DNA of 64,000 bases from Escherichia coli (GCF_017348835.2 NZ_CP071375.1); one strand, 5' to 3'. Positions 47,088 to 64,000 are shown, counted from the first letter of the stretch. Notes: generated by a model not told the origin, from the letters alone. Numbers and translations: made by a program.

Positions 47088-47102
47088 TTACAATTCAATC
47101 AG

Positions 47103-48265
47103 TTACGCCTTCTTTATATCCTCCATAATTCCACAGTGGGACATATTTGGGACATGATCACCAAAAATGTCGTCTATTTTCCTTGCATGCTCTGTCAAAT
47201 GATTAGGCGCAAGGTGAGCATACCTACGAACCATTTCTATGGACTCCCATCCGCCCATTTCCTGAAGCACAGATAATGGGACGCCTGACTGGATCAGCCA
47301 GCTTGCCCAGGTGTGTCTGAGGTCATGGAAACGGAAATCTTCAATTCCTGCACGACGACAAGCTGATAGCCATGATGTCTTGCTGTCGATGCGCATCTTC
47401 CTGACCGCAGGCGTTGATGTTCCATCTGCTCGCTTAGCCGCCTTGGTATGTACAAACACCCATTTGTGATGCTTGCCTATTTGATCACGCAACACTTTAC
47501 AGGCGGTATCGTTCAGCGCCACACCAATGGCGCGGTTTGATTTGCTCTCTTCTGGATTCACCCAGGCAACTCGTCGCTGCATGTCGATTTGTTGCCATTC
47601 CAGATTTATGATGTTCGACTTTCTCAGACCAGTTGCCAGCGCAAACTTGACGACAGATTTCAGTGGTTCGGGGCACTCATCAATAAGGCGTTTTGCTTCC
47701 TCCTTTTCCAGCCATCTGACTCGCTTGTTTCTGACCGCTGGTATCTTGATGACAGGCGCTTTTTCCAGCCACTTCCAGTCGCGTTCTGCAGCACGGAGAA
47801 TGGCCTTTATCATGGCAAGATGCTTTGCCTTTGTCTGAGTTGATACTGGCTTTGGTTCATAAACAGGCGGTTCTTTACCTTTCCTGATGGCGGCCTGAAC
47901 TTTCTGTTTCCATATTTCTTTCGTCTTTCTGTTATGCATTCTGCTTACAGCAGAGTAAATCTTTGCCTCCGAGATATCTTTAAGCCTTATACCCTCAAAA
48001 TGTTCAAGCCAGAACTCAATCCGGCTTTTATCTGAATCGAGAGATTTTTATCAGCTTTTTCCTCAAGCCATCTTAGGCAGGCCTCTTCAAAAGTGACATC
48101 AGGTAAATCCCCTAGCTTTTCTACTCGCCAGAGTTCTGCTTTTCGCTTGTCGTGCAACTCCTGAGCTTGCCGCTTGTCCTTTGTGCCAAGAGATTCCTTA
48201 ATTCGTTTCCCGCCCGGGAGCGAATACGAGGCATACCATATTTCATTTCTGCGGAAGAGTGACAT
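47103..48265 (-). pseudogene. intD: tyrosine integrase, reading frame interrupted by a frameshift
   Basis: N-terminal 74 codons ([19 protein letters not shown]..., ORF 47987-48265) and C-terminal catalytic part (ORF 47103-47939, HxxR ... Y) are in different frames; the break is at a 5-nt homopolymer at 48045-48049. Confidence 0.8.
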
Positions 48266-48492
48266 TTTCTTTCCTCTGTTATGCCATCACCCGCGCTCAC
48301 CTGGACAGTATGCAGCGGAGACTGAAGCGCCGCAATGCAAGCTTGCCGTGTTGTGAGGTAAGGAGATTTTGGCTTGGTTGGATCTTTACGTGTTGCCTGT
48401 AGGCGGCCTGTTCGTATCCAGTTGGTGGCGGTTGGTCTGGATATCTTAAGAAACTGACAGGCCTCATCGAGTGTGAGGCTGTATGGCTCCAT
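48121..48492 (-). CDS. xis: excisionase-like (AlpA/Xis-type HTH) protein; 3' end overlaps int start
   Basis: Start [31 protein letters not shown] at 48492 (ATG overlaps upstream stop as TAATG); 3' boundary uncertain. Confidence 0.55.
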
Positions 48493-48797
48493 TATTTCAC
48501 CTCTTGCTGTGTCATTGTTGAAAAATGGATACCAGCTCGTTGCTGCCAGACGATCCAACCGAGAGTCATATCCCATGCCATGTATTCGTTATCGCCGTTT
48601 TTTGCTCTCCGACGATCTACTAAGTCACCGAAACGCTTTTCCATGAATAATTCATAGGCTTCGCGTTCATCTGGCTCTACTTCCAGAGATACGAGTGCGA
48701 TTTCATAAGCACGGCGCTCAATATCGTCTCGAACCTCTAGGCTGCTGATTCGTTCTTTGATTTCTTTAATCAGTTCTTTATTGGTAAATGTGGTCAT
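48492..48797 (-). CDS. hypothetical phage early protein (resembles CPS-53 YfdT position)
   Basis: 101 aa acidic ORF, coupled to neighbours. Confidence 0.55.
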   Translation of the reverse strand: MTTFTNKELIKEIKERISSLEVRDDIERRAYEIALVSLEVEPDEREAYELFMEKRFGDLVDRRRAKNGDNEYMAWDMTLGWIVWQQRAGIHFSTMTQQEVK

Positions 48798-49153
48798 TAT
48801 GCTCCAGCCTCCGGTGCTTTTGGCATTACTGCCCAGTGAGTGATATTGACGTTTTCAAGGTCCCCGACCTGAAATGTCCACTGCCATTCTCCGGTTTCTT
48901 TTTGTCCCCAGTTGTACCAGAGAGAACGCCAGCCAATCAGCCAGCCTTCTCCATTAGCATCAAATAACAGAACACTTTCATTTGCTGGTGGCAGTTCAGC
49001 TGACACTGGTATTATTTTGTTTTCCAGTGCCGCACATTTAGCTTCAAGCGCGTCGAATTTACGTAACAGGTACTCAGCATTTGTTTCGTTCACTTTCAGA
49101 TCTCGCGGTACACATTTCCCGCGAAGAAACCCTTCCATTTCGAAAACATTCAT
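48797..49153 (-). CDS. hypothetical phage protein (resembles CPS-53 YfdS position)
   Basis: ~118 aa; ATG at 49153 overlaps stop of upstream HD gene (ATGA). Confidence 0.55.
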   Translation of the reverse strand: MNVFEMEGFLRGKCVPRDLKVNETNAEYLLRKFDALEAKCAALENKIIPVSAELPPANESVLLFDANGEGWLIGWRSLWYNWGQKETGEWQWTFQVGDLENVNITHWAVMPKAPEAGA

Positions 49154-49686
49154 GCGCATTTGCGTAACTCCGATAAATCGTTAAAACGTTCCATAAACAT
49201 CCCGTAGGCATGACCCGGTGCCAGTGGAATCACGTTGAACATCTCTGTTGCCGGGATGCCTTCCAGTACAGGCCAGAAAGAGCCATCATCAAGCCCGAGA
49301 TCGCGGCGTTCGGTTGCCAGCATGATGAGATCGGCATATTTCACGGGTGTACTCATAACTAGGGGTAACCCGTATTTCTCACGGATTACGGCGTCTATTT
49401 TTTCTTCCATTTGTTTATAGTCAGGAAGAAGGCGTTTCAGTGGTGCGGGAATGTCCTGGCAATACGCTTCTGTTGCATCATGCATTAACGCTTCAAAAGC
49501 AAATTCCTGCGGCACCAGCTGGCTGCAAAGAACCGCATGTTGGGCGACGCTGTAGAAGTGCGAAAGATGACCGGCAAAGCGACAGATATTTGAAAGGGAA
49601 ACCGCGATATCGTTAATATCGATGTCGTCTTTATTTATCTTGTCATAATAAAAATGCTTCCCGGAAAAAGTTTTAATAAATGACAT
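49150..49686 (-). CDS. HD-domain phosphohydrolase (YfdR-like)
   Basis: 178 aa from MSFIKTF with GGAG 8 nt upstream; H...HD motif (ALMHDATEAY). Confidence 0.7.
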   Translation of the reverse strand: MSFIKTFSGKHFYYDKINKDDIDINDIAVSLSNICRFAGHLSHFYSVAQHAVLCSQLVPQEFAFEALMHDATEAYCQDIPAPLKRLLPDYKQMEEKIDAVIREKYGLPLVMSTPVKYADLIMLATERRDLGLDDGSFWPVLEGIPATEMFNVIPLAPGHAYGMFMERFNDLSELRKCA

Positions 49687-49813
49687 TTTGTTCTCCACGT
49701 ATATGCACTGCACCGCGCTGAATTCTGGTAAAAGGAAGCCCTCACCATCCGGTGATTATTGAGTTAATTACGTTTCCATAAATGCCCCCGCAGGGGCATT
49801 TGCAGTAATGAAA

Positions 49814-50638
49814 TCAGGCGGTGAAAGTACCAATAAAGGTTTCTACTTTGCTGTCTTTGAATTTCTCAACAAGCAGATCACGAAATTCGTTAGCCATTTC
49901 TTCCTGCACCGCTTCCAGCTGAATAATGCGCAGAACCAGTACAGGACGATCGCCAGTGATAATGCTGAGGCGTAATTTAAACGGACGTTCTTTCAGGCCT
50001 TCAAACGGAACGCATTTAAATTCAAATGCCACTGGCATAATGTCTTTGGTCTTCGCTTCGACAGACTCCATCAGGGAGCGTTTGCCGCTGAAGTCATTAT
50101 CTTCAAAATCAGCGGTCTGGTTTGCTTCAATCGTGATTTTACGGACTGCCGCAGCCGCTTTTGTTGCCTGAATGGCGTCACCATTAGCATCAAAGCCCAC
50201 AAGGTAGTCGGCCCAGTCTTCGATCCATTCTGCCAGTGACTTCTGGGAGTTACGCTCGCCGTTAACAGACAACAGAGCAGAGAACGGTGCTGTCTTTTTC
50301 AGTTTGAGAGTGGCAGTGTTATCTGCGTGACCTGGCTCATCAATAGTACCCAGGTTAAGCACACTGACGGCACGCATATTATCGGCATCGATAAAGCAGC
50401 GGGTGCCTTCATCTGCAAGATCTTTAGAATAACGGGTAAAATCATCGATGCAGGCAGTGGAAAGTGCACCACGGAAACGGAAGCGATTTAAATTAAATTT
50501 TTCCAGATCATGAATGCGGAAATTCTCAGGCAATGCCACAGCATCGGCACCAATCTTACTGATAATTTCATTAACACCCTGAGCAGAAATAAGGGCATGG
50601 ATTTGATTAATTGCAGTTGCGTCTAAGTTCTGAGACAT
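49814..50638 (-). CDS. DUF2303-type phage protein (YfdQ-like)
   Basis: 274 aa. Confidence 0.65.
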
Positions 50639-50703
50639 AATAAGTCCTCACTATATAAAGATATTCAGTGATGAGATAAATAATCAGTTTATTACGAACG
50701 ATA

Positions 50704-51066
50704 TTAACGACCTGCTGCGCGGAGTTTTCCGTCAGGTTCACCGGCAAGAGTCAGTAATTGTCCCTGGTCTTCCTGCAGAATAGTCAGGCGACCACCGCGA
50801 TTGACATACATCGGCGTTTCGGTGGTGTCTTCTTCGGAAATTTTCCCGCGGTTAGTCGGGCGAATATATGAGAGTTTGTGTTTGATTTTCACACGGTTCT
50901 CATCAAATGGTTCGATTTCCAGGTTGAGTGAGACCTTACCTTTGGTTTTCGTGTTCATCACACCGGAAGCGACTTCACTGAGAACTGCGCCGATTTTGGT
51001 TTCAAATACGCCGCCGTCCAGCTCCCCGATAAATGCCTGCACATCAGTACTGCGTTCGCTAGCCAT
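50704..51066 (-). CDS. hypothetical phage protein (YfdP-like), first gene of the leftward block
   Basis: 120 aa from MASERSTDVQ; GGAG upstream. Confidence 0.55.
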   Translation of the reverse strand: MASERSTDVQAFIGELDGGVFETKIGAVLSEVASGVMNTKTKGKVSLNLEIEPFDENRVKIKHKLSYIRPTNRGKISEEDTTETPMYVNRGGRLTILQEDQGQLLTLAGEPDGKLRAAGR

Positions 51067-51536
51067 TTTGCTGCTCCTCATCATATCGACCCTGCAAGGC
51101 CGATTAGTTTCTCCACAAAACAGAGAAGAACACCTGTGGTGGCCGCCGCCCGGATGGATTGGGTTATGAGCCCGTCGTCCGGTGATGCTCTTCTCTGTTT
51201 TGTAAAAAGGACGGTACCAGCCGGAAGCAAGGGTACAAGCTGGTACCGCCAGGACTACACACAGCATAAAGTTGTGGTGCCGGGTGCCCTCCCGGTGCCT
51301 GGCGAAGGTTGCACACCAGGCGGGTGGGTATCCACAGAAGGTCGACTGTCAGCCTCAACCTTAACCCGCGTGCGCTGAGCCGCATTCACCACAACGCTAA
51401 GGATTCTCTCTGGTTGAAAATACTTAGCTGTTATGTGCCTGCTTTTAGCCACATCAGGCGAGGTGGACCTGGTTATTCCCCAACAACAAGGATTCGGTTA
51501 ATCTGGATATCCCCAACAACAATAAGAGTATTCAAT

Positions 51537-52052
51537 GTGATCGCTGAATTAACGGCAGCAATGACGGCTATTCGTGAAACAGCCCAGATTGCAAAACTAA
51601 TGAACGAGGCAAAAACTCAAGCTGAAGTAAATGCGGCTATTGGTGAGCTGAACTCAAAGCTTGCGTCTATTCAGCGCGAATGCGTGTCTCTCGTTGAACT
51701 GGTGGGCTCTTATCAAGAAATAAATGCTTCTCTCAAAGCTAAAATTGCAGAATTCGAAAACTTTGAGGCTCAGACGGAAGGCTATATCCTTAACCAACTT
51801 GAGTCGGGTACTTTTGTATACTCGAAGGAGGTAATCGTGAACGGTGGCAGCATAACCATGCATCTTTGCCCAAAATGTTTTGGACAAAAGATAGTATCGA
51901 TACTTCAACCATTCCCGGTTAGCGAAGATGAGCTTTTTCATAAAAGCAGGTGCCTCCACTGTGAAAATAAGTTTCTGATGAATAAAAATCCGGATTACGT
52001 ATCGCCTCCATCCATTGAGGAGTTGTCCAGAAAACTTAACGGCAATCTGTAG
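51537..52052 (+). CDS. orphan protein: N-terminal heptad-rich helix plus C-terminal CxxC...CxxC zinc ribbon; convergent with pL
   Basis: ~171 aa from GTG 51537 (or 163 aa from ATG 51561); protein-like composition; own terminator at 52092-52115. Confidence 0.55.
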   Translation: MIAELTAAMTAIRETAQIAKLMNEAKTQAEVNAAIGELNSKLASIQRECVSLVELVGSYQEINASLKAKIAEFENFEAQTEGYILNQLESGTFVYSKEVIVNGGSITMHLCPKCFGQKIVSILQPFPVSEDELFHKSRCLHCENKFLMNKNPDYVSPPSIEELSRKLNGNL

Positions 52053-52091
52053 ATTACTACTGTTGTGGATATCCAGATTGTTAAAGAGCTA

Positions 52092-52115
52092 AGCGTCCTG
52101 TAGGGCGCTTTTTTG
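52092..52115 (+). terminator. intrinsic terminator of the orphan plus-strand gene
   Basis: agcgtcc tgta gggcgct followed by TTTTTT. Confidence 0.6.
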
Positions 52116-52280
52116 TTGCTAACGAATCATCCTGGACTTCATATGCCCCAGGCGGCTACTTCGTGGGCGTCCTGCCTGTTCGTTTTTGACATTTACTGAC
52201 TGCTTACGACACATGCACCGTGTTGCAACCAGATTTTGTTGTAATCCTGTAGTTGGTCTGGAACAAAAGATAAAATTAAA

Positions 52281-52317
52281 TTGCGAGATATGCAAGCGAT
52301 ATTTGCGAGGTATGCAA
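52281..52317. promoter_or_regulatory. OL-type operator pair with likely leftward promoter pL
   Basis: Two 15-bp sites ttgcgagatatgcaa and ttgcgaggtatgcaa, 22 bp apart, just past the 3' end of cI; same motif as sites between cI and cro. Confidence 0.55.
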
Positions 52318-52371
52318 ATTTATAGGTAGTAAAAAGCCACCTTTCGGTGGCCGATGGATGGGATATTGAGG

Positions 52372-53064
52372 TTAATTATGTCTCTTAAGGGTTTGCGACT
52401 GACTGATTAAGACCTTTCCAAAGACCATGAATCGGTGTTCGTTTTCGCTAGTAATTCCCCATTCACGGTAAATCTGGTTATCAGAAATCACCAGCAGTTT
52501 GTCAGGAATCATTTGAAGTCTTTTAACGTATATTTTGTCATCAAAACCAAAGACATATATACCATCACCATCAAACTGATTGATGCTGACATCAACGAAG
52601 ATGAGATCTCCTGGCTCAATGGTTGGACACATACTGTCCCCACGAACGTTGATAACTTTGATGTGATTGGCTGGTCGTCCGCCGAACATTGATACAGCAT
52701 TATCAGTTCTGTATTCGATGGCATGAATCACATCAATGACATCACCGCCCTGGATAAGGCCATTTCCCGCACTGGCACTGATATCCAGCATTTCAATACG
52801 GAACACATCCTTCACCTGCGCAACATCCTCATTATTACTGTTTTTATATACAGTATTACTTTTGTGGGCAGAGGTAAAGAGATCAGCAATATCAACACCT
52901 AAGCTCTTGGCAATATTACTCAGTGTTTGTTCGGTAAATTGTTTTTGCTTACCCGTTTCTAAGCGCGAGATGTTCGCCGCATCTACTCCTATTGCTTCAG
53001 CGAGATCGGCGATTTTCATGTTCTTCGCTTGGCGAAGTTGTCTGACTCGGTTTCCTATGTTCAT
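52372..53064 (-). CDS. cI: CI-type prophage repressor (XRE HTH plus S24 LexA-like peptidase domain)
   Basis: 230 aa; N-terminal HTH (MKIADLAEAIGVDAANISRLETGK); C-terminal GDSM ... K peptidase motif. Confidence 0.85.
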   Translation of the reverse strand: MNIGNRVRQLRQAKNMKIADLAEAIGVDAANISRLETGKQKQFTEQTLSNIAKSLGVDIADLFTSAHKSNTVYKNSNNEDVAQVKDVFRIEMLDISASAGNGLIQGGDVIDVIHAIEYRTDNAVSMFGGRPANHIKVINVRGDSMCPTIEPGDLIFVDVSINQFDGDGIYVFGFDDKIYVKRLQMIPDKLLVISDNQIYREWGITSENEHRFMVFGKVLISQSQTLKRHN

Positions 53065-53084
53065 GCGTTTATTACATTTCTTTA

Positions 53085-53147
53085 TTGCGTGATAAGCAAA
53101 TCAACTTGCGCAAAATAATTGCGTGAAATAACATGCATAACGCGCAA
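53085..53147. promoter_or_regulatory. OR operator region with divergent pRM/pR
   Basis: ttgcgtgataagcaa (53085-53099), ttgcgcaa core, atgcataacgcgcaa (53133-53147) between divergent cI and cro. Confidence 0.55.
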
Positions 53148-53161
53148 TATTTGGAGGGCAT

Positions 53162-53422
53162 ATGCAATCACCATTACGAAATGTGCGTAAGGCGCATGGT
53201 TTCACTTTGCAGCATGTTGCTGCGGGTGTTCAAGTCAATCCAGCGACGTTGAGTCGTATTGAGAGGCTGGAGCAGATTCCATCTATCGAGCTTGCAGAAC
53301 GTTTAGCCAATTTTTTTAAGGGTGAAGTCAGCGAAATGCAGATTCTTTATCCGGCACGTTTTCAATCTAGCCAAAACCAGAATGGGTTTAAACCACAGGA
53401 ACAGGAGGTGAACCGTGGGTAA
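53162..53422 (+). CDS. cro: Cro-like HTH regulator
   Basis: 86 aa; HTH (GFTLQHVAAGVQVNPATLSRIE); GGAGGG upstream; divergent from cI. Confidence 0.75.
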   Translation: MQSPLRNVRKAHGFTLQHVAAGVQVNPATLSRIERLEQIPSIELAERLANFFKGEVSEMQILYPARFQSSQNQNGFKPQEQEVNRG

Positions 53423-53966
53423 GCATCACTGGAAAGTAGAAAAACAGCCTGAGTGTTACGTGAAAGCTGTCAGAAAAACTATCGCAGCGTTGCCGGGGGG
53501 GTACGCTGAAGCTGCTGACTGGCTGGATGTAACAGAGAACGCATTATTTAACCGCCTTCGTGCCGATGGCGATCAGATTTTCCCGCTGGGATGGGCAATG
53601 ATTTTGCAACGTGCTGGTGGAACTCACTTCATTGCTGACGCTGTGGCGCAGTCTGCAAATGGCGTCTTTGTGTCTCTTCCTGATGTCGAGGATGTGGACA
53701 ACGCCGATATCAACCAACGCCTGCTGGAAGTCATTGAACAGATCGGCAGTTATTCAAAACAGATTCGTTCAGCAATTGAAGACGGTGTAGTGGAACCGCA
53801 TGAGAAGACAGCAATTAACGATGAGCTGTACCTCTCAATTTCGAAGCTGCAGGAGCATGCAGCACTGGTCTACAAAATCTTTTGCGTTTCAGAAAGTAGT
53901 GACGCCCGCGAGTGTGCAGCTCCGGGCGCCGTGGCGTGTCGTGACTGTGGAGAAACTAACGCATGA
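53415..53966 (+). CDS. CII-like / YdaT-like regulatory protein
   Basis: 183 aa; position after cro; overlaps cro end. Confidence 0.55.
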
Positions 53967-54301
53967 ACAGTTTAACAACACACTACCGTCGCTCGCAACT
54001 GATTGCGCTTCCTGTACCGGGTGGAAAAGCGAAGGTGGAGTATTGCTATGCAGTAAATGTACCAGGTGACAGGGAAATTGTAACCCACAGCTTTGCAGAG
54101 TGGGCTGTGGGTGATTTCAACCGGCAGAAGGAGACAGTCCTTTGCGACAAGTTAACCGCTGGTTCAAAGATCACTACGGAGTGCCCGTCAGAGTCATTCG
54201 TTGGGAGCCGGAAACACAACGGGTTATCTACCTCCGTGAAGGCTATGAGCATGAGTGCTTCAGCCCGCTCGAACAGTTTCGTCGTAAATTCAGGGAAATA
54301 G
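53963..54301 (+). CDS. hypothetical protein; 3' half may belong to an alternative frame (possible frameshift or two small coupled genes)
   Basis: 112 aa ORF; a second frame from TTG 54142 to stop 54318 gives protein-like ...[55 protein letters not shown]. Confidence 0.4.
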
Positions 54302-54310
54302 AGGTCGGTC

Positions 54311-55252
54311 ATGAGCACTAAATTAACCGGCTATGTATGGGATGGTTGCGCTGCGTCAGGCATGAAATTATCCAGCGTGGCAATTATGGCCCGCCTGGCT
54401 GATTTCAGTAATGACGAAGGTGTGTGCTGGCCATCAATTGAAACCATTGCCCGTCAGATTGGCGCGGGGATGAGTACCGTCAGAACGGCTATCGCACGGC
54501 TGGAAGCAGAAGGCTGGTTAACGCGTAAGGCGCGTCGCCAGGGTAACCGCAATGCGTCGAATGTTTATCAGCTTAACGTTGCGAAGCTTCAGGCAGCGGC
54601 ATTTTCTCAACTGTCAGATTCTGACCCGTCAAAATCTGACGCATCAAAATCTGACCCGTCAAAATTTGATGCGTCGAAATCTGGCAAAAAAGCGGGTTTT
54701 CACCCGTCAGAATCTGGCGGGGATCCGTCAGTAAAATCAAAACATGATCCGTCAGATAAAAAAACTTCTCGTCCGGACGCTTCGCAACCGGACACGCAGA
54801 AGGCTGAACAGGAGTTTTTAACTCGCCATCCTGATGCGGTTGTATTCAGCCCTAAAAAGCGCCAGTGGGGAACGCAGGATGATTTGACCTGCGCACAGTG
54901 GCTCTGGAAAAAAATCATCGCCCTGTACGAGCAGGCCGCCGAATGTGACGGCGAGGTGGTTCGTCCCAAAGAACCGAACTGGACAGCCTGGGCAAACGAA
55001 ATTCGCCTGATGTGTGTGCAGGATGGTCGTACTCACAAACAAATCTGCGAGATGTACAGCCGCGTCAGCCGCGATCCGTTCTGGTGCCGTAACGTGCTCA
55101 GCCCGTCGAAGCTGCGGGAAAAATGGGATGAGCTTTCCCTGCGCTTATCGCCGTCCGTCAGCACGTACACCGAAAAACGCGAAGACCCGTACTTCAAAGC
55201 CAGTTACGACAACGTGGACTACAGCCAGATCCCGGCAGGATTCAGGGGGTGA
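54311..55252 (+). CDS. replication initiator (O-like; N-terminal winged-helix; C-terminal region possibly YdaU/DUF1376-like) with internal origin iterons
   Basis: 313 aa; central repeat-encoded low-complexity region; position after cII. Confidence 0.65.
   Translation: MSTKLTGYVWDGCAASGMKLSSVAIMARLADFSNDEGVCWPSIETIARQIGAGMSTVRTAIARLEAEGWLTRKARRQGNRNASNVYQLNVAKLQAAAFSQLSDSDPSKSDASKSDPSKFDASKSGKKAGFHPSESGGDPSVKSKHDPSDKKTSRPDASQPDTQKAEQEFLTRHPDAVVFSPKKRQWGTQDDLTCAQWLWKKIIALYEQAAECDGEVVRPKEPNWTAWANEIRLMCVQDGRTHKQICEMYSRVSRDPFWCRNVLSPSKLREKWDELSLRLSPSVSTYTEKREDPYFKASYDNVDYSQIPAGFRG
54620..54762. repeat. putative replication origin: ~7 iteron copies (core CCGTCAG) followed by an A-rich tract
   Basis: tctgacccgtcaaaa / tctgacgcatcaaaa / tctgacccgtcaaaa / tttgatgcgtcgaaa tandem 15-mers plus cacccgtcagaatctgg, gatccgtcagtaaaatc, gatccgtcagataaaaaaa. 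Confidence 0.6.
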
Positions 55253-55254
55253 TC

Positions 55255-55743
55255 ATGAGTCTTTTGAATGACGTTCAGAAATTCATTGAAGCCCATCCGG
55301 GCTGTACTTCCGGAGACATTGCGGATGCTTTTGCAGGTTACTCACGGCAGCGCGTTCTGCAGTCAGCAAGCAAGTTACGTCAGAGTGGGCGTGTGGCTCA
55401 CCGTTGTGAAGGAGATACACACAGACATTTCCCGCGCCTGACTGAGAGAGCGCAGGATCCGGAACCACAACCAGTTCGTGAAACCAGACCTGTGCGCAAT
55501 TTCTATGTCGGCACTAACGACCCGCGGGTGATTTTGTGCCTGACCCGCCAGGCGGAAGAACTGGAGTCCAGGGGCTTATACCGTCGTGCTGCAACGGTGT
55601 GGATGGCGGCATTCCGTGAAAGCCACTCCCAGCAAGAGCGAAACAATTTTCTTGCGCGTCGTGAGCGGTGTTTACGGAAAAGCAGCAAGCGCGCTGTATC
55701 GGGTGAAGAGTGGTATCTGTCAGGGAATTACGTGGGGGCTTAA
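55255..55743 (+). CDS. hypothetical regulator, possibly PerC-family-like
   Basis: 162 aa from MSLLNDVQ; GGGGG 7 nt upstream; basic C-terminus with LYRRAATVWMAAF motif. Confidence 0.4.
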   Translation: MSLLNDVQKFIEAHPGCTSGDIADAFAGYSRQRVLQSASKLRQSGRVAHRCEGDTHRHFPRLTERAQDPEPQPVRETRPVRNFYVGTNDPRVILCLTRQAEELESRGLYRRAATVWMAAFRESHSQQERNNFLARRERCLRKSSKRAVSGEEWYLSGNYVGA

Positions 55744-56069
55744 TGACGACGTTAACTCAATGCCAGCAGCAGGTGCTGGATATGCTGATTTCTTACCAGA
55801 AAGAACGTGGCTTCCCGCCAACCAATCAGGAGGTGGCTACCATGCTGGGATACCGTTCAGTGAATGCAGCGGTGGAGCATCTTCGCGCACTGGAGAAAAA
55901 AGGCGTCATCACGATAAAGCGTGGCGTGGCCCGGGGCATCACGCTTCATACCGCGGTGAAGGACGACGACAGCGAGGTGGCCGGGATTATCCGCGCACTG
56001 CTTGCTGGTGAGGAAAACGCCAGGCTGCGTGCAACCCACTGGTTACATGAGAGGGGCCTGAAAGTATGA
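55743..56069 (+). CDS. LexA N-terminal DNA-binding-domain-only paralogue (no S24 peptidase domain)
   Basis: 108 aa MTTLTQCQQQVLDMLISYQKERGFPPTNQEVATMLGYRSVNAAVEHLRALEKKGVITIKRGVARGITL aligns along the whole LexA winged-helix domain ([68 protein letters not shown]). Confidence 0.7.
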   Translation: MTTLTQCQQQVLDMLISYQKERGFPPTNQEVATMLGYRSVNAAVEHLRALEKKGVITIKRGVARGITLHTAVKDDDSEVAGIIRALLAGEENARLRATHWLHERGLKV

Positions 56070-56455
56070 AGCTGATCCTGCCTTTTCCGCCCAGCGTGAA
56101 CACGTACTGGCGACACCCCAACAAAGGGGCGTTTGCTGGTAAGAGCCTGATAAGCGCGGCGGGGCGAAAATTCCAGAGCGCGGCGTGCGCAGCAATAGTT
56201 GAGCAGTTACGTCGTCTGCCGAAACCAACGTCGGCACCTGCTTCAGTGGAGATCGTGTTGTTTCCTCCGGATAACAGGATCCGCGATCTGGACAACTATA
56301 ACAAGGCGCTGTTTGACGCCCTGACCCACGCGGGGGTGTGGGAAGACGACAGTCAGGTGAAAAGAATGCTGGTGGAGTGGGGACCGGTTATCCCGGAAGG
56401 GAAGGTCGAGATCACTATCAGTAAGTACGAGAAAACGGCGGGTGCAGCTGCCTGA
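56066..56455 (+). CDS. rusA: Holliday junction resolvase RusA
   Basis: 129 aa; LPFPPSVNTYW ... DLDN motifs. Confidence 0.85.
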   Translation: MKLILPFPPSVNTYWRHPNKGAFAGKSLISAAGRKFQSAACAAIVEQLRRLPKPTSAPASVEIVLFPPDNRIRDLDNYNKALFDALTHAGVWEDDSQVKRMLVEWGPVIPEGKVEITISKYEKTAGAAA

Positions 56456-56474
56456 TCAAGAGGAGAAACGAAGT

Positions 56475-57284
56475 ATGAATAATCTGATGGTCATTGATGG
56501 TATTGAAGTTCGTCGTGATGCTTATGGGCGTTACAGCCTGAACGATCTGCATCGCGCAGCAGTAGCATCTGGTGCAAATGCCAGAACCAAGGAGCCAGGA
56601 AAGTTTCTTTCCAGCCAACAAACTGTTGAGCTTGTTCATGAATTAACCAACACCCAGAATTTGGGTGTTGACCCGGTGAGTGTGATTCATGGGGGAAATG
56701 AACGGGGAACGTATGTCTGTAAGGAACTGGTGTATGCCTATGCAATGTGGATCAGCCCGTCATTCCATCTGAAGGTGATCCGTACTTTCGATATGGTAAC
56801 CAGCGCGCCGGAAAAGTTATCCGGACAGGTTGCTGACAAGATGCAGGCTGGCGTGATTCTGCTGGACTTTATGCGCCGGGAGTTAAATCTGTCTAACTCA
56901 TCTGTGCTTGGGGCCTGTCAGAAACTCCAGGAGGCTGTTGGCTTACCGAATCTGGCACCGCGCTATGCCATTGATGCACCTGCTGACGCGCCTGATGGCT
57001 CAAGCCGCCCGACGCTGTCGCTGAGTGCACTGCTGAAGCAGTATGGTATCCGCCTGACGGCTAATCAGGCATATCACCAGATGGCGAAGCTGGGGATCGT
57101 TGAACAACGCGAACGATACAGCCGTACCGCGATTAACAACATCAAAAAATTCTGGTCGCTGACAGCGAAAGGTTGCATGTTCGGCAAGAACATCACCAGT
57201 CCCGCAAATCCGCGCGAGACGCAGCCGCATTTCTTCGAATCCCGATTCCCTGAGCTGTTAAAGCTGCTCGATACCGTTCATTGA
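56475..57284 (+). CDS. KilA-N domain protein (putative antirepressor-like)
   Basis: 269 aa from MNNLMVIDGIEVRRDAYGRYSLNDLHRAA; AGGAG upstream. Confidence 0.65.
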   Translation: MNNLMVIDGIEVRRDAYGRYSLNDLHRAAVASGANARTKEPGKFLSSQQTVELVHELTNTQNLGVDPVSVIHGGNERGTYVCKELVYAYAMWISPSFHLKVIRTFDMVTSAPEKLSGQVADKMQAGVILLDFMRRELNLSNSSVLGACQKLQEAVGLPNLAPRYAIDAPADAPDGSSRPTLSLSALLKQYGIRLTANQAYHQMAKLGIVEQRERYSRTAINNIKKFWSLTAKGCMFGKNITSPANPRETQPHFFESRFPELLKLLDTVH

Positions 57285-57285
57285 G

Positions 57286-58281
57286 GTGAACGTGAGAGCG
57301 CTACTGACCCCCGAGATTGCCCCGCGTATGGGGATCGTATTGTTCAGACCCGGTTCAGAGCTGATGCCCCTGTTTATGCAGGGGCGTGTCCTGCTGGAGC
57401 CTGAGCCGGAACGTTATTCATCTTTTGCCAGTGGTGCCGTTCCGGCTGCATCACAACCGCTGGCGGATGATCCTGCCGTTCGGGCCGTGTTCCGCAATGA
57501 GGCAGTGATCCGTCGTGCTGGTGGCGTGGAATGTCTTGAAAGCTGGTTACTTCGTGAAAAAGGCTGCCAGTGGCCTCATTCCGACTGGCACAGCGAGAAC
57601 ATGACCACAATGCGACACGCGCCGGGCGCAATCCGTCTGTGCTGGCACTGCGATAACCAACTGCGCGATCAGTTCACGGAACGGCTGGAATCAATGGCAA
57701 CGGATAACTGTGCCCGCTGGGTGTTGTCTGTTGTGCGTCGGGATCTCGGTTTTGATGACAGTCACGTTGTGACAATGCCGGAACTGTGCTGGTGGCTGAT
57801 TCGTAATGATCTGGCGGATACCTTACCGGAAAGTGCAGCCCGTAAGGCACTGAGATTACCGAAGCCTTTTGTGCCGTCTGTCACCCGGGAAAGTGACCTG
57901 GTGCCTTCGGTTCCTGCCACCAGCATCATCCAGAATAAAGCGAAAAAGGTGCTGGCGCTGAAAGTGGATCCGGAGTCGCCGGACTCTTTTATGTTACGCC
58001 CAAAACGTCGCCGCTGGGTTAATGAAAAGTACACGCGATGGGTTAAGACGCAGCCGTGCGCATGTTGTGGAAAACCTGCTGATGATCCCCACCACCTGAT
58101 AGGCCACGGTCAGGGTGGAATGGGGACAAAAGCGCATGACCTCTTTGTGTTGCCTTTGTGCAGAAAGCATCACGACGAGCTGCATGCGGATACTGTGGCA
58201 TTCGAAGAGAAGTATGGCTCCCAGCTGGAGCTGATATTTCGTTTTATCGATCGTGCGCTGGCGATTGGTGTGCTGGCCTGA
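57286..58281 (+). CDS. DUF968 (YdfU-like) protein with C-terminal Cys/His cluster
   Basis: 331 aa; [12 protein letters not shown] ... CRKHHDELH. Confidence 0.65.
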
Positions 58282-58298
58282 TTTTGTGGAGAAAGTTG

Positions 58299-58682
58299 AT
58301 GCGTGATATTCAGATGGTTCTTGAGCGTTGGGGAGCGTGGGCGGCTAATAATCATGAAGATGTGACTTGGTCGTCCATTGCCGCCGGTTTTAAGGGATTA
58401 ATTCCTTCAAAAGTAAAATCTCGCCCACAATGTTGTGACGATGACGCGATGATCATTTGCGGGTGCATGGCCCGTCTGAAAAAGAACAACAGCGACTTGC
58501 ACGATTTATTAGTAGATTATTATGTAGTCGGTATGACATTCATGTCACTGGCAGGTAAGCATTGCTGCTCTGATGGTTATATCGGGAAAAGGTTACAGAA
58601 GGCTGAGGGCATAATTGAAGGGATGTTAATGGCATTAGATATCCGGTTAGAGATGGATATCGTTGTTAATAACTCTAATTAA
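58299..58682 (+). CDS. quuD: late-gene antiterminator Q
   Basis: 127 aa from [18 protein letters not shown]; Cys-rich zinc-binding region. Confidence 0.8.
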
Positions 58683-58870
58683 TATGCCAATTGTTTACTA
58701 AAAATTATTAAAAATGGGGCGTTGCAACGCCCCCAAAAATAAAGGGTAATATATAACAGAAGGTTTATATAGTTAGAAGCAAGGTTGTGCTCCTAAAGGA
58801 AGTGGCTTGAGGGAGCCACTTATATGTTGGGGAGGCAAAGCCTCCCGCAACATATCTTTTAGTAATCAAA

Positions 58871-59953
58871 TTAGAACTGGTAAACCATACCTACAGCAAC
58901 GATATCATCGGTAGCAACGCCAGATGCTTTCGTGAAATCGCTCTTATCAATCAGGTTGATTTTGTAATCAACAAAAGTGGACATATTTTTGTTGAAGTAA
59001 TAGGTTGCACCTACATCAATATATTCAACCAGGTCCTGATCACCCCACGCACCCAAGTCTTTTCCTTTAGATTGCAGGTAAGCAACGGACGGACGCAGAC
59101 CGAAGTCGAACTGATATTGTGCAACTACTTCGAAGTTTTGTGCTTTGTTGGCAATATGGTTATTACCAAAAACAGTCATGTTCTGGGTTTCAGAATAGGT
59201 GGTAGCCAGATAGATGTTGTTCGCATCATATTTCAGACCAGCTGCCCATACTTCAGCATTTTGACCAGATGCATTCAGGCTGTTGTTACCGTAGATAACC
59301 TGATTATTAGTGCGGTCAGATTTAGCATAGGTTGCACCTACACCGAATCCTTCATACTCATACGTAGTGGAGAAACCGAAACCATCACCATTAGCTTCAG
59401 TTACGTCAGTGCGGTCATTTTTACCCTGATACTGAGCAGCAAAGTTCAGACCATCAACCAGACCAAAGAAGTCGTTGTTACGATAAGTTGCAACACCAGT
59501 GGTGCGACCAGTCATGAACACATCTGTTTGGGTCCAGGTATCGCCACCGAATTCTGGCAGAACGTCAGTCCACGCACCGATGTCATATGCTACACCGTAG
59601 TTACGGCCGTAATCGATTGAGCCGTAGTCCCCGAATTTCAGGCCTGCAAATGCAAGACGGGTTTTGTCTTTGGAGGAGCCTTGAGATTCAGCGCGGTTGC
59701 CTTTGAATTCATATTCCCACTGACCGAAACCAGTCAGTTGATCGTTGATTTGGGTTTCACCTTTGAAGCCAAGACGGGCATAAGTAGTATCACCATCATC
59801 TGCATCATTAGAGGAGAAGTAGTGCTTGGCATTAACTTTCCCATATAGATCCAGCTTGTTACTGTCTTTATTATAAATTTCAGCTGCCTGAGCAGACATC
59901 GCCATCAGTACTGATGCGGCTACAGCAGAAATTGCCACTGTTAATTTTTTCAT
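58871..59953 (-). CDS. nmpC: prophage-encoded outer membrane porin (OmpC/OmpF family), uninterrupted
   Basis: 360 aa; signal peptide; C-terminal ...VGMVYQF beta-barrel signature. Confidence 0.9.
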
Positions 59954-60541
59954 CGTGAGCCCTTTTTTTTGAACTATTATTAAAAAATGATGTCACTGCG
60001 CGATAAATATTCATCTAATCAATGTGATTATTTCAAGATGTAAGTTTTAGTTTCTCATTTAATTTGTGAGGTAGATCTCTATTTTTATCTGAACTTTTTC
60101 TATCGAAACCTATTTATGGCTCTTATTTGAACAAAAATAAACCTATTAGCTAATTTATATTAATGGCTGTTATTTATGGAGGTTCTATAATTCGGCGGTT
60201 TAATTTAAATCAACTAAAAATAACGGCGGAAATTATTTGTAGGATATTTGTTGAGGTTTTCTTATGTATTTGTGGTGGTGTTTTGAACACTCGGTAGCAT
60301 TCTCATAAATATCATTCAGTGGTTTACGTACGTAAAAAATTGGTTATGCTGTTAAGAGTGGTTACTTCGTCACACAGCTTAAACCCGCCGTCGAGCTGGT
60401 TTTTCCATTTTTTGAGTCTCGATATTAGCTGATAACTCAATACCTGAGTTATTCACTGACTCCGAGTCTGTTACGTTTCTGCTTTTTTGCGATACGTTGT
60501 ATTCCCTCAATTTACACCCGCTTTGTCTGCGAGGTGGGGTT

Positions 60542-60757
60542 ATGAAATCCATGGATAAGTTAACAACGGGTGTCGCCTATGGCACCTCAGCAGGTAGTGC
60601 CGGTTACTGGTTTTTACAGCTGCTCGATAAAGTTACGCCCTCACAGTGGGCAGCAATAGGTGTGCTGGGTAGCCTGGTATTTGGCCTGCTGACGTACCTG
60701 ACAAACCTTTATTTCAAGATTAAAGAAGATAAGCGCAAGGCTGCGAGAGGTGAATAA
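60542..60757 (+). CDS. essD: holin (class II, phage 21 S-like)
   Basis: 71 aa from MKSMDKL; two TM segments; stop overlaps lysozyme ATG. Confidence 0.85.
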
Positions 60758-61254
60758 TGCCTCCATCATTACGAAAAGCCGTTGCTGCTGCTATTGGTGG
60801 CGGAGCAATTGCTATAGCATCAGTGTTAATCACTGGCCCAAGTGGTAACGATGGTCTGGAAGGTGTCAGCTACATACCATACAAAGATATTGTTGGTGTA
60901 TGGACTGTATGTCACGGGCATACAGGAAAAGACATCATGCTCGGTAAAACGTATACCAAAGCAGAATGCAAAGCACTCTTGAATAAAGACCTTGCCACTG
61001 TCGCCAGACAAATTAACCCGTACATCGAAGTCGATATACCGGAAACAACGCGCGGCGCTCTTTACTCATTCGTTTACAACGTGGGTGCTGGCAATTTCAG
61101 AACATCGACGCTTCTTCGCAAAATAAACCAGGGCGATATCAAAGGCGCATGTGATCAGCTACGTCGCTGGACATACGCTGGCGGTAAGCAATGGAAAGGC
61201 CTGATGACTCGCCGTGAGATTGAGCGTGAAATCTGTTTGTGGGGTCAGCAATGA
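60757..61254 (+). CDS. rrrD: phage lysozyme (endolysin)
   Basis: 165 aa; N-terminal SAR-like hydrophobic segment; lysozyme motifs. Confidence 0.88.
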
Positions 61255-61712
61255 ACAGAGTAACCGCGATTATCTCCGCTCTGGTTATCTGCATCATCGT
61301 CTGCCTGTCATGGGCTGTTAATCATTACCGTGATAACGCCATTACCTACAAAGCCCAGCGCGACAAAAATGCCAGAGAACTGAAGCTGGCGAACGCCACC
61401 ATTACTGACATGCAGCAGCGCCAGCGTGATGTTGCTGCACTGGATGAAAAATACACGAAGGAGTTAGCTAATGCGAAAGCTGAAAATGATGCTCTGCGTG
61501 ATGATGTTGCCGCTGGTCGTCGTCGGTTGCACATCAAAGCAGTCTGTCAGTCAGTGCGTGAAGCCACCACCGCCTCCGGCGTGGATAATGCAGCCTCCCC
61601 CCGACTGGCAGACACCGCTGAACGGGATTATTTCACCCTCAGAGAGAGGCTGATCACTATGCAAAAACAACTGGAAGGAACCCAGAAGTATATTAATGAG
61701 CAGTGCAGATAG
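61251..61712 (+). CDS. rzpD: i-spanin (Rz)
   Basis: 153 aa from [18 protein letters not shown]-terminal TM plus coiled coil. Confidence 0.85.
61471..61653 (+). CDS. rzoD: o-spanin lipoprotein (Rz1) embedded in +1 frame of Rz
   Basis: 60 aa; lipobox VVVGC; proline-rich. Confidence 0.8.
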
Positions 61713-61743
61713 AGCTGCCCATATCGATGGGCAACTCATGCAA

Positions 61744-62037
61744 TTATTGTGAGCAATACACACGCGCTTCCAGCGGAGTATAAATGCCTAAAGTAATAAA
61801 ACCGAGCAATCCATTTACGAATGTTTGCTGGGTTTCTGTTTTAACAACATTTTCTGCGCCGCCACAAATTTTGGCTGCATCAACAGTTTTCTCCTGTCCA
61901 ATTCCCGAAACGAAGAAGTGATGGGTGATGGTTTCCTTTGGTGTTACTGCTGTCGGTTTGTTTCCAACAGTAAACGTCTGTTGAGCACATCCTGTAATAA
62001 GCATTGCCAGAGCGGCAGAAAACAACATTTTTTTCAT
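61744..62037 (-). CDS. borD: Bor-family lipoprotein
   Basis: 97 aa from MKKMLFSAALAMLITGC. Confidence 0.88.
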   Translation of the reverse strand: MKKMLFSAALAMLITGCAQQTFTVGNKPTAVTPKETITHHFFVSGIGQEKTVDAAKICGGAENVVKTETQQTFVNGLLGFITLGIYTPLEARVYCSQ

Positions 62038-62399
62038 CTTATTATCCTGCATTGTTAAAAACGGCAGAATCCTATGTGACAACAATTAAACGATAATTAA
62101 ATGGATTGATGAAAATTAAAACTATATAGGTGTACGCTCAGACTATTGGAGGAAGTTGGGGACACTCAGAATCCTGTGGAATGAAATAAACCGGTCTATC
62201 CGTCTATTACCCTTTTAGCTGCGCTGTATCGTCGCCGTATTCCCGCATTAACCATGACCGTAGCCCGACGGGGAATTCCTTCTGCGTGAGTGTGCGGGAA
62301 TAATCAAAAACGATGCACACCGGGTTTTACTGTGCTGACAGACGCAGGGTTACCCTCATAGTCGCTTTTCCGGTGCGATGGTGGAAGAAACCGGGATGT

Positions 62400-62594
62400 T
62401 TATTCATCATCACTTTGGATTGATGTATATGCTCTCTTTTCTGACGTTAGTCTCCGACGGCAGGCTTCAATGACCCAGGCTGAGAAATTCCCGGACCCTT
62501 TTTGCTCAAGAGCGATGTTAATTTGTTCAATCATTTGGTTAGGAAAGCGGATGTTGCGGGTTGTTGTTCTGCGGGTTCTGTTCTTAGTTGACAT
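62400..62594 (-). CDS. ribbon-helix-helix small protein (YlcI/DUF3950-like)
   Basis: 64 aa; basic N-terminus then RHH-like NIRFPNQMIEQINIALEQKG. Confidence 0.6.
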   Translation of the reverse strand: MSTKNRTRRTTTRNIRFPNQMIEQINIALEQKGSGNFSAWVIEACRRRLTSEKRAYTSIQSDDE

Positions 62595-62780
62595 GAGGTT
62601 GCCCCGTATTCAGTGTCGCTGATTTGTATTGTCTGAAGTTGTTTTTACGTTAAGTTGATGCAGATCAATTAATACGATACCTGCGTCATAATTGATTATT
62701 TGACGTGGTTTGATGGCGTAGATGCACGTTGTGACATGTAGATGATAATTATTATCATTTTGCGGGTCCTTTCCGGCGAT

Positions 62781-62810
62781 CCGACAGGTTACGGGGCGGC
62801 GACCTCGCGG
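62781..62810. other. lambda-type cos site (cosN with 12-nt cohesive end GGGCGGCGACCT at 62793-62804)
   Basis: ccgacaggttacg|gggcggcgacct|cgcgggttttcgc matches the lambda cohesive-end junction as recalled; cosB-like region follows before Nu1. Confidence 0.8.
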
Positions 62811-62982
62811 GTTTTCGCTATTTATGAAAATTTTCCGGTTTAAGGCGTTTCCGTTCTTCTTCGTCGTAACTTAATGTTTTTATTTAAAACACCCTCTGAA
62901 AAGAAAGGAAACGACAGGTGCTGAAAACGAGCTTTTTGGCCTCTGTCGTTTCCTTTCTCTGTTTTTGTCCGTGGAATGAACA

Positions 62983-63528
62983 ATGGAAGTCAACAAAAAG
63001 CAGCTGGCTGACATTTTCGGCGCGAGTATCCGTACCATTCAGAACTGGCAGGAGCAGGGAATGCCCGTTCTGCGGGGTGGTGGCAAGGGTAATGAAGTGC
63101 TTTATGACTCTGCCGCCGCCATAAAATGGTATGCCGAAAGGGATGCTGAAATTGAGAACGAAAAGCTGCGCCGGGAAGTTGAAGAACTGCGGCAGGCCAG
63201 CGAGACAGATCTCCAGCCAGGGACTATTGAGTACGAACGCCATCGACTTACGCGTGCGCAGGCCGACGCACAGGAGCTGAAAAATGCCAGAGACTCCGCT
63301 GAAGTGGTGGAAACCGCATTCTGTACTTTCGTGCTGTCGCGGATCGCAGGTGAAATTGCCAGTATTCTCGACGGGATCCCCCTGTCGGTGCAGCGGCGTT
63401 TTCCGGAACTGGAAAACCGACATGTTGATTTCCTGAAACGGGATATCATCAAAGCCATGAACAAAGCAGCCGCGCTGGATGAACTGATACCGGGGTTGCT
63501 GAGTGAATATATCGAACAGTCAGGTTAA
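62983..63528 (+). CDS. nohD: terminase small subunit (lambda Nu1-like)
   Basis: 181 aa MEVNKKQLADIFGASIRTIQNWQEQGMPVLRGGGKGNEV..., lambda Nu1-like along full length. Confidence 0.92.
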   Translation: MEVNKKQLADIFGASIRTIQNWQEQGMPVLRGGGKGNEVLYDSAAAIKWYAERDAEIENEKLRREVEELRQASETDLQPGTIEYERHRLTRAQADAQELKNARDSAEVVETAFCTFVLSRIAGEIASILDGIPLSVQRRFPELENRHVDFLKRDIIKAMNKAAALDELIPGLLSEYIEQSG

Positions 63529-64000
63529 CAGGCTGCGGCATTTTGTCCGCGCCGGGCTTCGCTCACTGTTCAGGCCGGAGACACAGACCGCCGTTGAATG
63601 GGCGGATGCCAATTACTATCTCCCGAAAGAATCCGCATACCAGGAAGGGCGCTGGGAAACACTGCCCTTTCAGCGGGCCATCATGAATGCGATGGGCAGC
63701 GACTACATCCGCGAGGTGAATGTGGTGAAGTCTGCCCGTGTTGGTTATTCCAAAATGCTGTTGGGTGTTTATGCCTACTTCATAGAGCATAAGCAGCGCA
63801 ACACCCTTATCTGGTTGCCGACGGATGGCGATGCCGAGAACTTTATGAAAACCCACGTCGAGCCGACCATCCGTGATATTCCATCGCTGCTGGCGCTGGC
63901 CCCGTGGTATGGCAAAAAGCACCGGGATAACACGCTCACCATGAAGCGTTTCACCAATGGGCGTGGTTTCTGGTGCCTGGGCGGTAAAGCGGCAAAAAAC
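63506..64000 (+). CDS. terminase large subunit (lambda A-like), N-terminal part; continues beyond window
   Basis: GTG at 63506 overlapping Nu1 end; translation VNISNSQVNRLRHFVRAGLRSLFRPE... Confidence 0.85.

Follow-up and report, generated by a model that had tools for sequence, protein, structure and literature searches.

The Prophage and Its Replication Gene

The 64-kb stretch of Escherichia coli DNA analyzed here (the window) carries a lambdoid prophage from approximately position 47,090 to 64,000, with an integrase at its left end. The prophage resembles Escherichia phage PhiR29_1 (97% identity over approximately 64% of the 40000-64000 query) and has genes named as in the K-12 cryptic prophages CPS-53 and e14 (YfdN/P/Q/T and YmfL/M). 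The gene at 54311-55252 on the plus strand encodes an O-like replication initiator of 313 residues and contains, near its middle, an array of short tandem repeats. On its 5' side are found an S24 repressor (52372-53064, minus strand), a cro-like gene (53162-53422), a CII-like gene (CP76, 53415-53966) and a DUF4222 gene. By following the cro-like and cII-like genes, the initiator gene sits at the rightward early operon position.

At the DNA level, the initiator gene agrees with gp41 of Shigella phage SfIV at 99.7% identity and with the gene for the SfII 'O protein family protein' at 98.7%. The protein matches PHROG 391 'replication initiation O-like' (E 1.7e-135), and it also matches PHROG 2514 'DnaD-like helicase loader' (E 7.4e-28) and PHROG 4880 'replisome organizer' (E 1.4e-12). 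Residues 23-70 (54377-54520, plus strand) form a winged-helix DNA-binding domain, the presumed reader of the iterons, which matches Pfam HTH_36 (PF13730; E 4.2e-11, 42.9 bits against a gathering cut-off of 25). GntR, MarR, DnaD_N and RP-C give weaker matches over the same stretch, and a Pfam scan of the initiator returned no match at E <0.01 to Phage_rep_O, the lambda N-domain type. The C-terminal domain (54827-55141, plus strand) is homologous to the C-terminal half of lambda O (BLASTP E 1e-25), with which it has the motifs WGT..DLT..W, PN..WAN.IRLM..DGR.H and FW..NVLSP.KLR.KW in common. This domain has no match in Pfam or NCBIfam and none in the PDB by phmmer. Its AlphaFold model is a confident helical bundle followed by a disordered tail, and the fold matches are weak. 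Judged by these homologies, the gene is an O-type initiator.

The next gene (55249-55743, plus strand) overlaps the initiator stop codon and occupies the position of lambda P. It encodes a PerC-like protein (Pfam PerC, E 9.2e-10) with no similarity to lambda P, and its N-terminal 100 residues have a single match, phrog_23071, a PHROG of unknown function. The overlap between the initiator stop and the PerC-like start (55249-55257, GTGATCATG) suggests translational coupling of the two genes. The final 76 bp of the initiator gene with the PerC-like junction (55177-55252) is 97-99% identical across many phages that have otherwise unrelated replication genes, among them SfV, mEp460, cdtI and the Stx2a and Stx2c phages; from this distribution, the segment looks like a common module boundary or a recombination joint. 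A LexA-DNA-binding-like gene and RusA lie 3' of the PerC-like gene.

An Array of Palindromic Iterons

Tandem Repeats Finder reports a repeat at 54620-54683 with a period of 15 (4.3 copies, score 86) or 30 (score 100). The array is the top-scoring tandem repeat of the window, and tandem repeats in 100 dinucleotide-preserving shuffles reached 63 at most. The pattern TCARAWTYTGR has nine strand-matches in the window against 0.7 expected, all of them within 54614-54717, and none of the 100 shuffles reached nine. The repeats are real and did not arise by chance. Only one other array of the window scores high; it lies well outside the prophage, at 4234-4323 (period 33, 2.7 copies, score 90).

Resolved into units, the array consists of five tandem iterons at 54613-54685, spaced at 15 bp. 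Each is a 13-bp near-palindrome, nTCA(A/G)A(A/T)TCTGAn (core TCA(A/G)A(A/T)TCTGA), followed by a 2-nt spacer. The first unit starts at 54613 and reads GTCAGATTCTGAC, then CC; it is a perfect palindrome, GTCAGA-T-TCTGAC. The second reads GTCAAAATCTGAC (then GC), the third ATCAAAATCTGAC (then CC), the fourth GTCAAAATTTGAT (then GC) and the last GTCGAAATCTGGC. The array is separated from an isolated sixth iteron, GTCAGAATCTGGC at 54706-54718, by a spacer of 20 nt (54686-54705) that includes runs of A6 and T4. The 15-bp spacing would put adjacent dimers approximately 150 degrees apart around the helix; it is tighter than the 20-24 bp of lambda, so simultaneous occupancy of adjacent units is not assured.

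Two 24-bp GATC-containing, A-rich repeats follow in tandem at 54722-54769 and read GATCCGTCAGTAAAATCAAAACAT and GATCCGTCAGATAAAAAAACTTCT. The initial annotation had described four tandem 15-mers followed by three more copies containing CCGTCAG. The tandem array stands, and its count becomes five units plus one. CCGTCAG does occur three times in this linker-coding region, at 54704, 54725 and 54749, but the copies are not equivalent: that at 54704 belongs to the sixth unit, and the other two sit in the separate, conserved 24-bp repeat. The A-rich tract of the same annotation is real but modest, with 35% G+C over 54722-54770 against 53% for the whole gene. The array was also said to encode a linker, and it does: residues 104-124, SDPSKSDASKSDPSKFDASKS, are rich in Ser, Asp, Lys and Pro and lie between the parts of the gene that code for the N- and C-domains.

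Two candidates in and around the array were set aside. CCGTCAG (CCGTCAGA) also occurs at 54451-54457 and 54477-54483 in the HTH-coding part, where it is not conserved in YeP1, EKP1 or phiP27; these copies, one of which uses an AGA Arg codon, are probably a coding coincidence outside the origin. A terminator-like hairpin on the minus strand at 54693-54706, in the spacer, was dropped because it is not conserved in the homologues.

The Units Are Constrained as DNA

The array was compared among seven homologues with N-domain identities of 60-100%: those of the window, phiNP, Klebsiella ST101-KPC2phi6.3, Yersinia YeP1, EKP1, phiP27 (L17) and Stx2_KH16-043. Each has three to six tandem 15-bp units of one family. 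The order of array, spacer, isolated unit and two or three GATC-containing 24-bp repeats is found in all seven, as is the A-run/T-run layout of the spacer. The isolated unit is intact in six of the seven, and the YeP1 copy is degenerate (GCCAGAATCTGGG).

Repeats of this kind could in principle be a low-complexity linker, (S-D-P/A-S-K)n, made by slippage and with no function as DNA. The encoded peptide is indeed of a flexible, Ser/Asp/Lys/Pro-rich kind, and in a set of 80 viral contigs whose N-domains are identical the copy number changes by 15 or 30 nt at a time, which is what slippage yields (five units in 74 contigs, four in one, six in one and seven in two). The comparison of iteron number across homologues that the initial annotation proposed thus gives three to six units among the seven homologues and four to seven among these 80 loci. 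The pattern of substitution, however, speaks against a peptide-level explanation. Among the 42 units of the seven homologues, positions 2, 3 and 11 are invariant, and the third-codon positions of the Ser codons, which are paired within the palindrome, are A in 39 of 42 and T in 40 of 42. Third-codon positions inside the units are approximately 94% conserved, far above the 19-49% of the folded N-domain, where third positions at conserved residues with at least four-fold degeneracy were compared and where the range (0.19-0.49) does not include the near-identical pair phiP27/KH16-043, which stands at 0.75. Ser is encoded almost entirely by TCA and TCT in the linker, and elsewhere mostly by AGC, TCC and others.

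Changes that alter the peptide are tolerated where they fall between palindromes. Substitutions among the 80 contigs affect five of eight spacer sites and four of 55 core sites (Fisher p 0.0008), and those in the spacers are non-synonymous, P to T or Q. Nucleotide identity between the window and phiNP is 0.92 and 0.89 in the linker-coding origin region and 0.77 in the N-domain, figures that lean on an identity-optimised alignment. The isolated iteron, as TTCAGAATCTGGA or TTCAGAATCTGAC, is kept as DNA in another reading frame in phiP27 (L086, approximately 1952-1964) and in Stx2_KH16-043 (L087, approximately 1967-1979). Compensating 1-nt indels flank the unit in both, and it encodes ..LTLQNLD.. 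(LQNL) there, as against ..HPSESGG.. (PSES) in the window. The two arms of the palindrome also change in concert: GTCAGA..TCTGAC in the window, TTCAGA..TCTGAA in KH16-043 and TCCAGA..TCTGGA in pKqq_SB1124_5. Unrelated N-domains, moreover, are accompanied by unrelated repeats at the same place. A linker without a DNA function is therefore strongly disfavoured and appears extremely improbable. By this comparative evidence, the units are constrained as DNA and not as peptide.

Repeat Type Follows the N-Domain

The array occupies the same gene position in every homologue examined, and its type changes with the domain that is presumed to read it. In phiNP of Citrobacter, the N-domain is common with the window (87% amino acid identity), the C-domain is unrelated and the 15-bp units are the same. 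The reverse combination is found in mEp460_4F5, in which the C-domain is common with the window (97% nucleotide identity), the N-domain is different and the repeats are 23 bp long (GGTCAAAATGACAC..). Both domains differ in SfV orf39 and in the O protein of Min27, each with a different N-domain of HTH_36 type; the repeats are of the type GTGCA-N5-TTCAC in the former and GGGCAGGAGCTGCCC in the latter. The match between repeat and N-domain spans at least four classes, across which the neighbouring genes and the C-domains vary independently. On these comparisons, repeat type tracks N-domain type and not C-domain type.

The plasmid collection was searched for a replicon with the initiator module as its sole rep gene. 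The matches were prophages in large records, or circular phage genomes of approximately 40 kb filed as plasmids. Such genomes are suggestive, though not decisive, as cases of extrachromosomal circles. One of them, pKqq_SB1124_5 of Klebsiella quasipneumoniae, is a 44-kb circular record that corresponds to a phage genome. Its initiator (3001-4050) has an N-domain of 49% identity in which the recognition helix differs, and the 15-bp units there have the sequence TCCAGAATCTGGA, a third palindromic iteron variant.

The palindromes might instead be bound by a host factor or by another phage regulator and not by the initiator of the surrounding gene. This gains some room from the fact that initiator binding is itself deduced from sequence, and from the GATC repeats, which are conserved whatever the iteron type and for which a host factor, SeqA or Dam for example, is a plausible reader. 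For the palindromes themselves, the correspondence of repeat type and N-domain type over at least four classes makes another binder very unlikely.

The GATC-containing repeats do not follow the N-domain in this way. They are kept in homologues even with CCGCAAG or CCACAAG in place of CCGTCAG, and they read GATCCGCAAGTAAATTCAAAACAT in phiP27 and GATCCGTCAGTAAATTCAAATACA in pKqq_SB1124_5. Since they are unchanged in homologues with differing iterons, they are probably not initiator sites. GATC sites at oriC and in lambda are under Dam/SeqA control, and by analogy the two GATC sites here hint at a similar control.

A Candidate Replication Origin

The array region is very probably the replication origin of the lambdoid prophage, located inside the gene of its own initiator. 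That an iteron array inside an O-like gene marks the origin had been proposed in the initial annotation, and the proposal is supported at the level of sequence by the PHROG 391 match, the homology to the C-terminal half of lambda O and the constraint on the units as DNA. In such an origin, rightward early transcription from the cro side would yield the 313-residue initiator. Dimers of its winged-helix N-domain would bind the 13-bp palindromes, five of them at 15-bp spacing and one isolated. The resulting nucleoprotein complex would destabilise the adjacent GATC-containing, A-rich 24-bp repeats of low stability, and the lambda-O-like C-domain together with the tail would recruit the host helicase machinery. 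Initiator binding, unwinding at 54722-54769 and the route of helicase loading are steps that we only infer.

The candidate unwinding element is modest. The least stable 40-bp duplex of the gene, 54730-54769, abuts the iteron units; its dG of -46.2 compares with a gene mean of -57.2 (sd 3.2), which is 3.4 sd from the mean but only the 97th percentile of the window. Matches to the DnaA box (TTWTNCACA, up to one mismatch) number 119 against 122 expected, with none in the origin region, and a promoter and terminator scan of 52300-56500 found no promoter-like site near the array.

A different role for the units has to be weighed, in which they serve the initiator as sites for autoregulation, copy control or incompatibility and replication starts elsewhere. 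The co-variation with the N-domain shows that the sites match the protein and says nothing of what they are for, and the weakness of the A/T-rich element fits such a role. Some plasmid iterons do act in this manner, and the extra iterons of lambda-type Stx phages are poorly bound in vitro, yet they are required for plasmid replication (PMC7466680). Against a purely regulatory role, the array, the isolated unit and the GATC repeats occur together in every homologue, in parallel with the lambda ori, and the prophage part of the window has no further tandem array. The early promoter is expected in the intergenic region on the cro side, over 1 kb upstream of the units, which are themselves intragenic. 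We consider regulation without origin function unlikely.

Public records label the protein 'primosomal protein' or 'replication protein O', and none annotates an origin. The SfIV genome paper describes a 'replication module' and does not mention an origin. The literature searched yielded neither a description of these iterons nor binding or origin experiments for this initiator class. The present comparison locates a likely origin and gives its likely recognition sequence, the palindrome TCAGA-W-TCTGA repeated every 15 bp. Prophages of E. coli, Shigella and Klebsiella very commonly carry an initiator of this type, for which at least 599 viral contigs with a related gene were counted, and it is also present in serotype-converting phages and some Stx phages. 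The assignment could help in annotation, in the construction of replicons from phage parts and in predicting which prophages of one host are incompatible in replication. The locus also offers a clean natural case of a DNA element under a constraint that prevails over the reading frame of the gene around it.

A DnaT-Like Tail and No P-Like Partner Gene

The initiator ends in SQIPAGFRG (55223-55249, plus strand), which is identical at eight of nine residues to SQIPPGFRG, residues 171-179 at the C-terminus of E. coli DnaT (sequence verified against PDB 9zbt_D). Alignment of the initiator with DnaT by hhalign covers the tail only (last 20 columns, E 8.6e-6). The tails of relatives read RDVNAISEPDNTIPEGFRG or VNHISEPDTEIPPGFRG, to be compared with RDVNTVSEPDSQIPPGFRG in DnaT, a match over approximately 19 residues. 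Neither the N-domain of DnaT nor its three-helix ssDNA-binding domain was detected in the initiator by hhalign, PDB phmmer or Pfam. The tail is present in 57 phage records, and nearly all of the annotated ones give the gene as one for replication or for a primosomal protein; the DnaT-like tail is the likely source of the label 'primosomal protein I' that public records use.

In lambda, the C-domain of O binds P, and P brings DnaB. Immediately downstream of the initiator studied here there is no P, DnaC-like or DnaB-like partner gene, and the annotation of neither the complete SfIV genome nor the corresponding stretch of PhiR29_1 lists a helicase, helicase loader or primase. The five tail-bearing genes examined in detail (window, SfIV, SfV, mEp460_4F5 and PhiR29_1) are all followed by a PerC-like gene. 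The tail is absent from phiP27, where a DnaC-like gene comes next, and from EKP1, where a toprim gene does; YeP1 lacks both the tail and an obvious loader.

Tentatively, these initiators of lambda-O type have lost P, and the tail (RDVNxISEPDxxIPxGFRG) may act as a short linear motif that plugs the origin complex directly into the host primosome through the contact that the DnaT tail makes, whether with DnaB-DnaC, PriA or PriB; we regard this as a possibility that is somewhat doubtful. How DnaT recruits DnaB/DnaC is called open in the replication-restart literature (PMC13377028, PMC5778457). The replication-restart literature searched assigns no role to the DnaT tail, and we found no mention of a PGFRG tail in the literature searched. 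If the proposal is true, the phage protein would offer a natural way to study how DnaT recruits DnaB/DnaC.

Comparison With Known Systems

The closest parallel is the lambda ori in gene O, the architecture invoked in the initial annotation; the prophage has this textbook arrangement in a family that has been studied less. Both origins have dyad-symmetric iterons with a central A-run in the linker-coding part in mid-gene, followed by a GATC-containing segment of low stability, and the array layout matches the description of the lambda ori (PMC7466680). In both cases, cro and cII precede the gene within the rightward early operon, and the C-terminal domains are homologous. The parallel holds for the linker position and fails for the N-domain, which is of the Phage_rep_O type in lambda and of the HTH_36 type here. 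Lambda has four iterons of 18 bp at 20-24 bp, whereas the window has five plus one of 13 bp at 15 bp, and the A/T-rich part is much weaker here. In lambda, the P gene follows O and O lacks a DnaT-like tail; here P is missing and the initiator has such a tail. By its sequence, the initiator is a classic lambdoid mosaic, in which a C-terminal half related to that of lambda O is joined to a different N-domain and different iterons. The O protein of a phage called 'P27' has been described with lambda-type iterons (Kozlowska et al.), so it has no direct bearing on the initiator class of the window.

Among other lambdoid phages, those of the SfV/ST64B/mEp460/SfII/SfIV group have the same order of a 'replication protein' and a PerC-like 'transcriptional activator'. 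SfII and SfIV carry genes 98.7-99.7% identical to the window initiator. SfV, ST64B, mEp460, cdtI and several Stx2 phages have the tail and the downstream gene in common with the window, but SfV and mEp460 differ from it in having other N-domains and other repeats.

Iteron theta plasmids (RepA, pi, TrfA) and SPP1 oriL in gene 38 combine a winged-helix initiator with direct repeats and an unwinding element in cis. The prophage likewise has a winged-helix initiator, tandem direct repeats and a candidate unwinding element with the initiator gene in cis, and the initiator gives the PHROG matches 'DnaD-like helicase loader' and 'replisome organizer'. The locus differs from these systems in the absence of DnaA boxes and in its palindromic units, as expected for dimer sites, and the fold similarity is too weak for a claim of membership. 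The likeness to E. coli DnaT is confined to the tail. Conceptually, the locus falls within the lambda paradigm, with the exception of helicase loading by an O-type initiator that has no P, and the DnaT-like tail on such initiators is the one thread that could lead toward something new.
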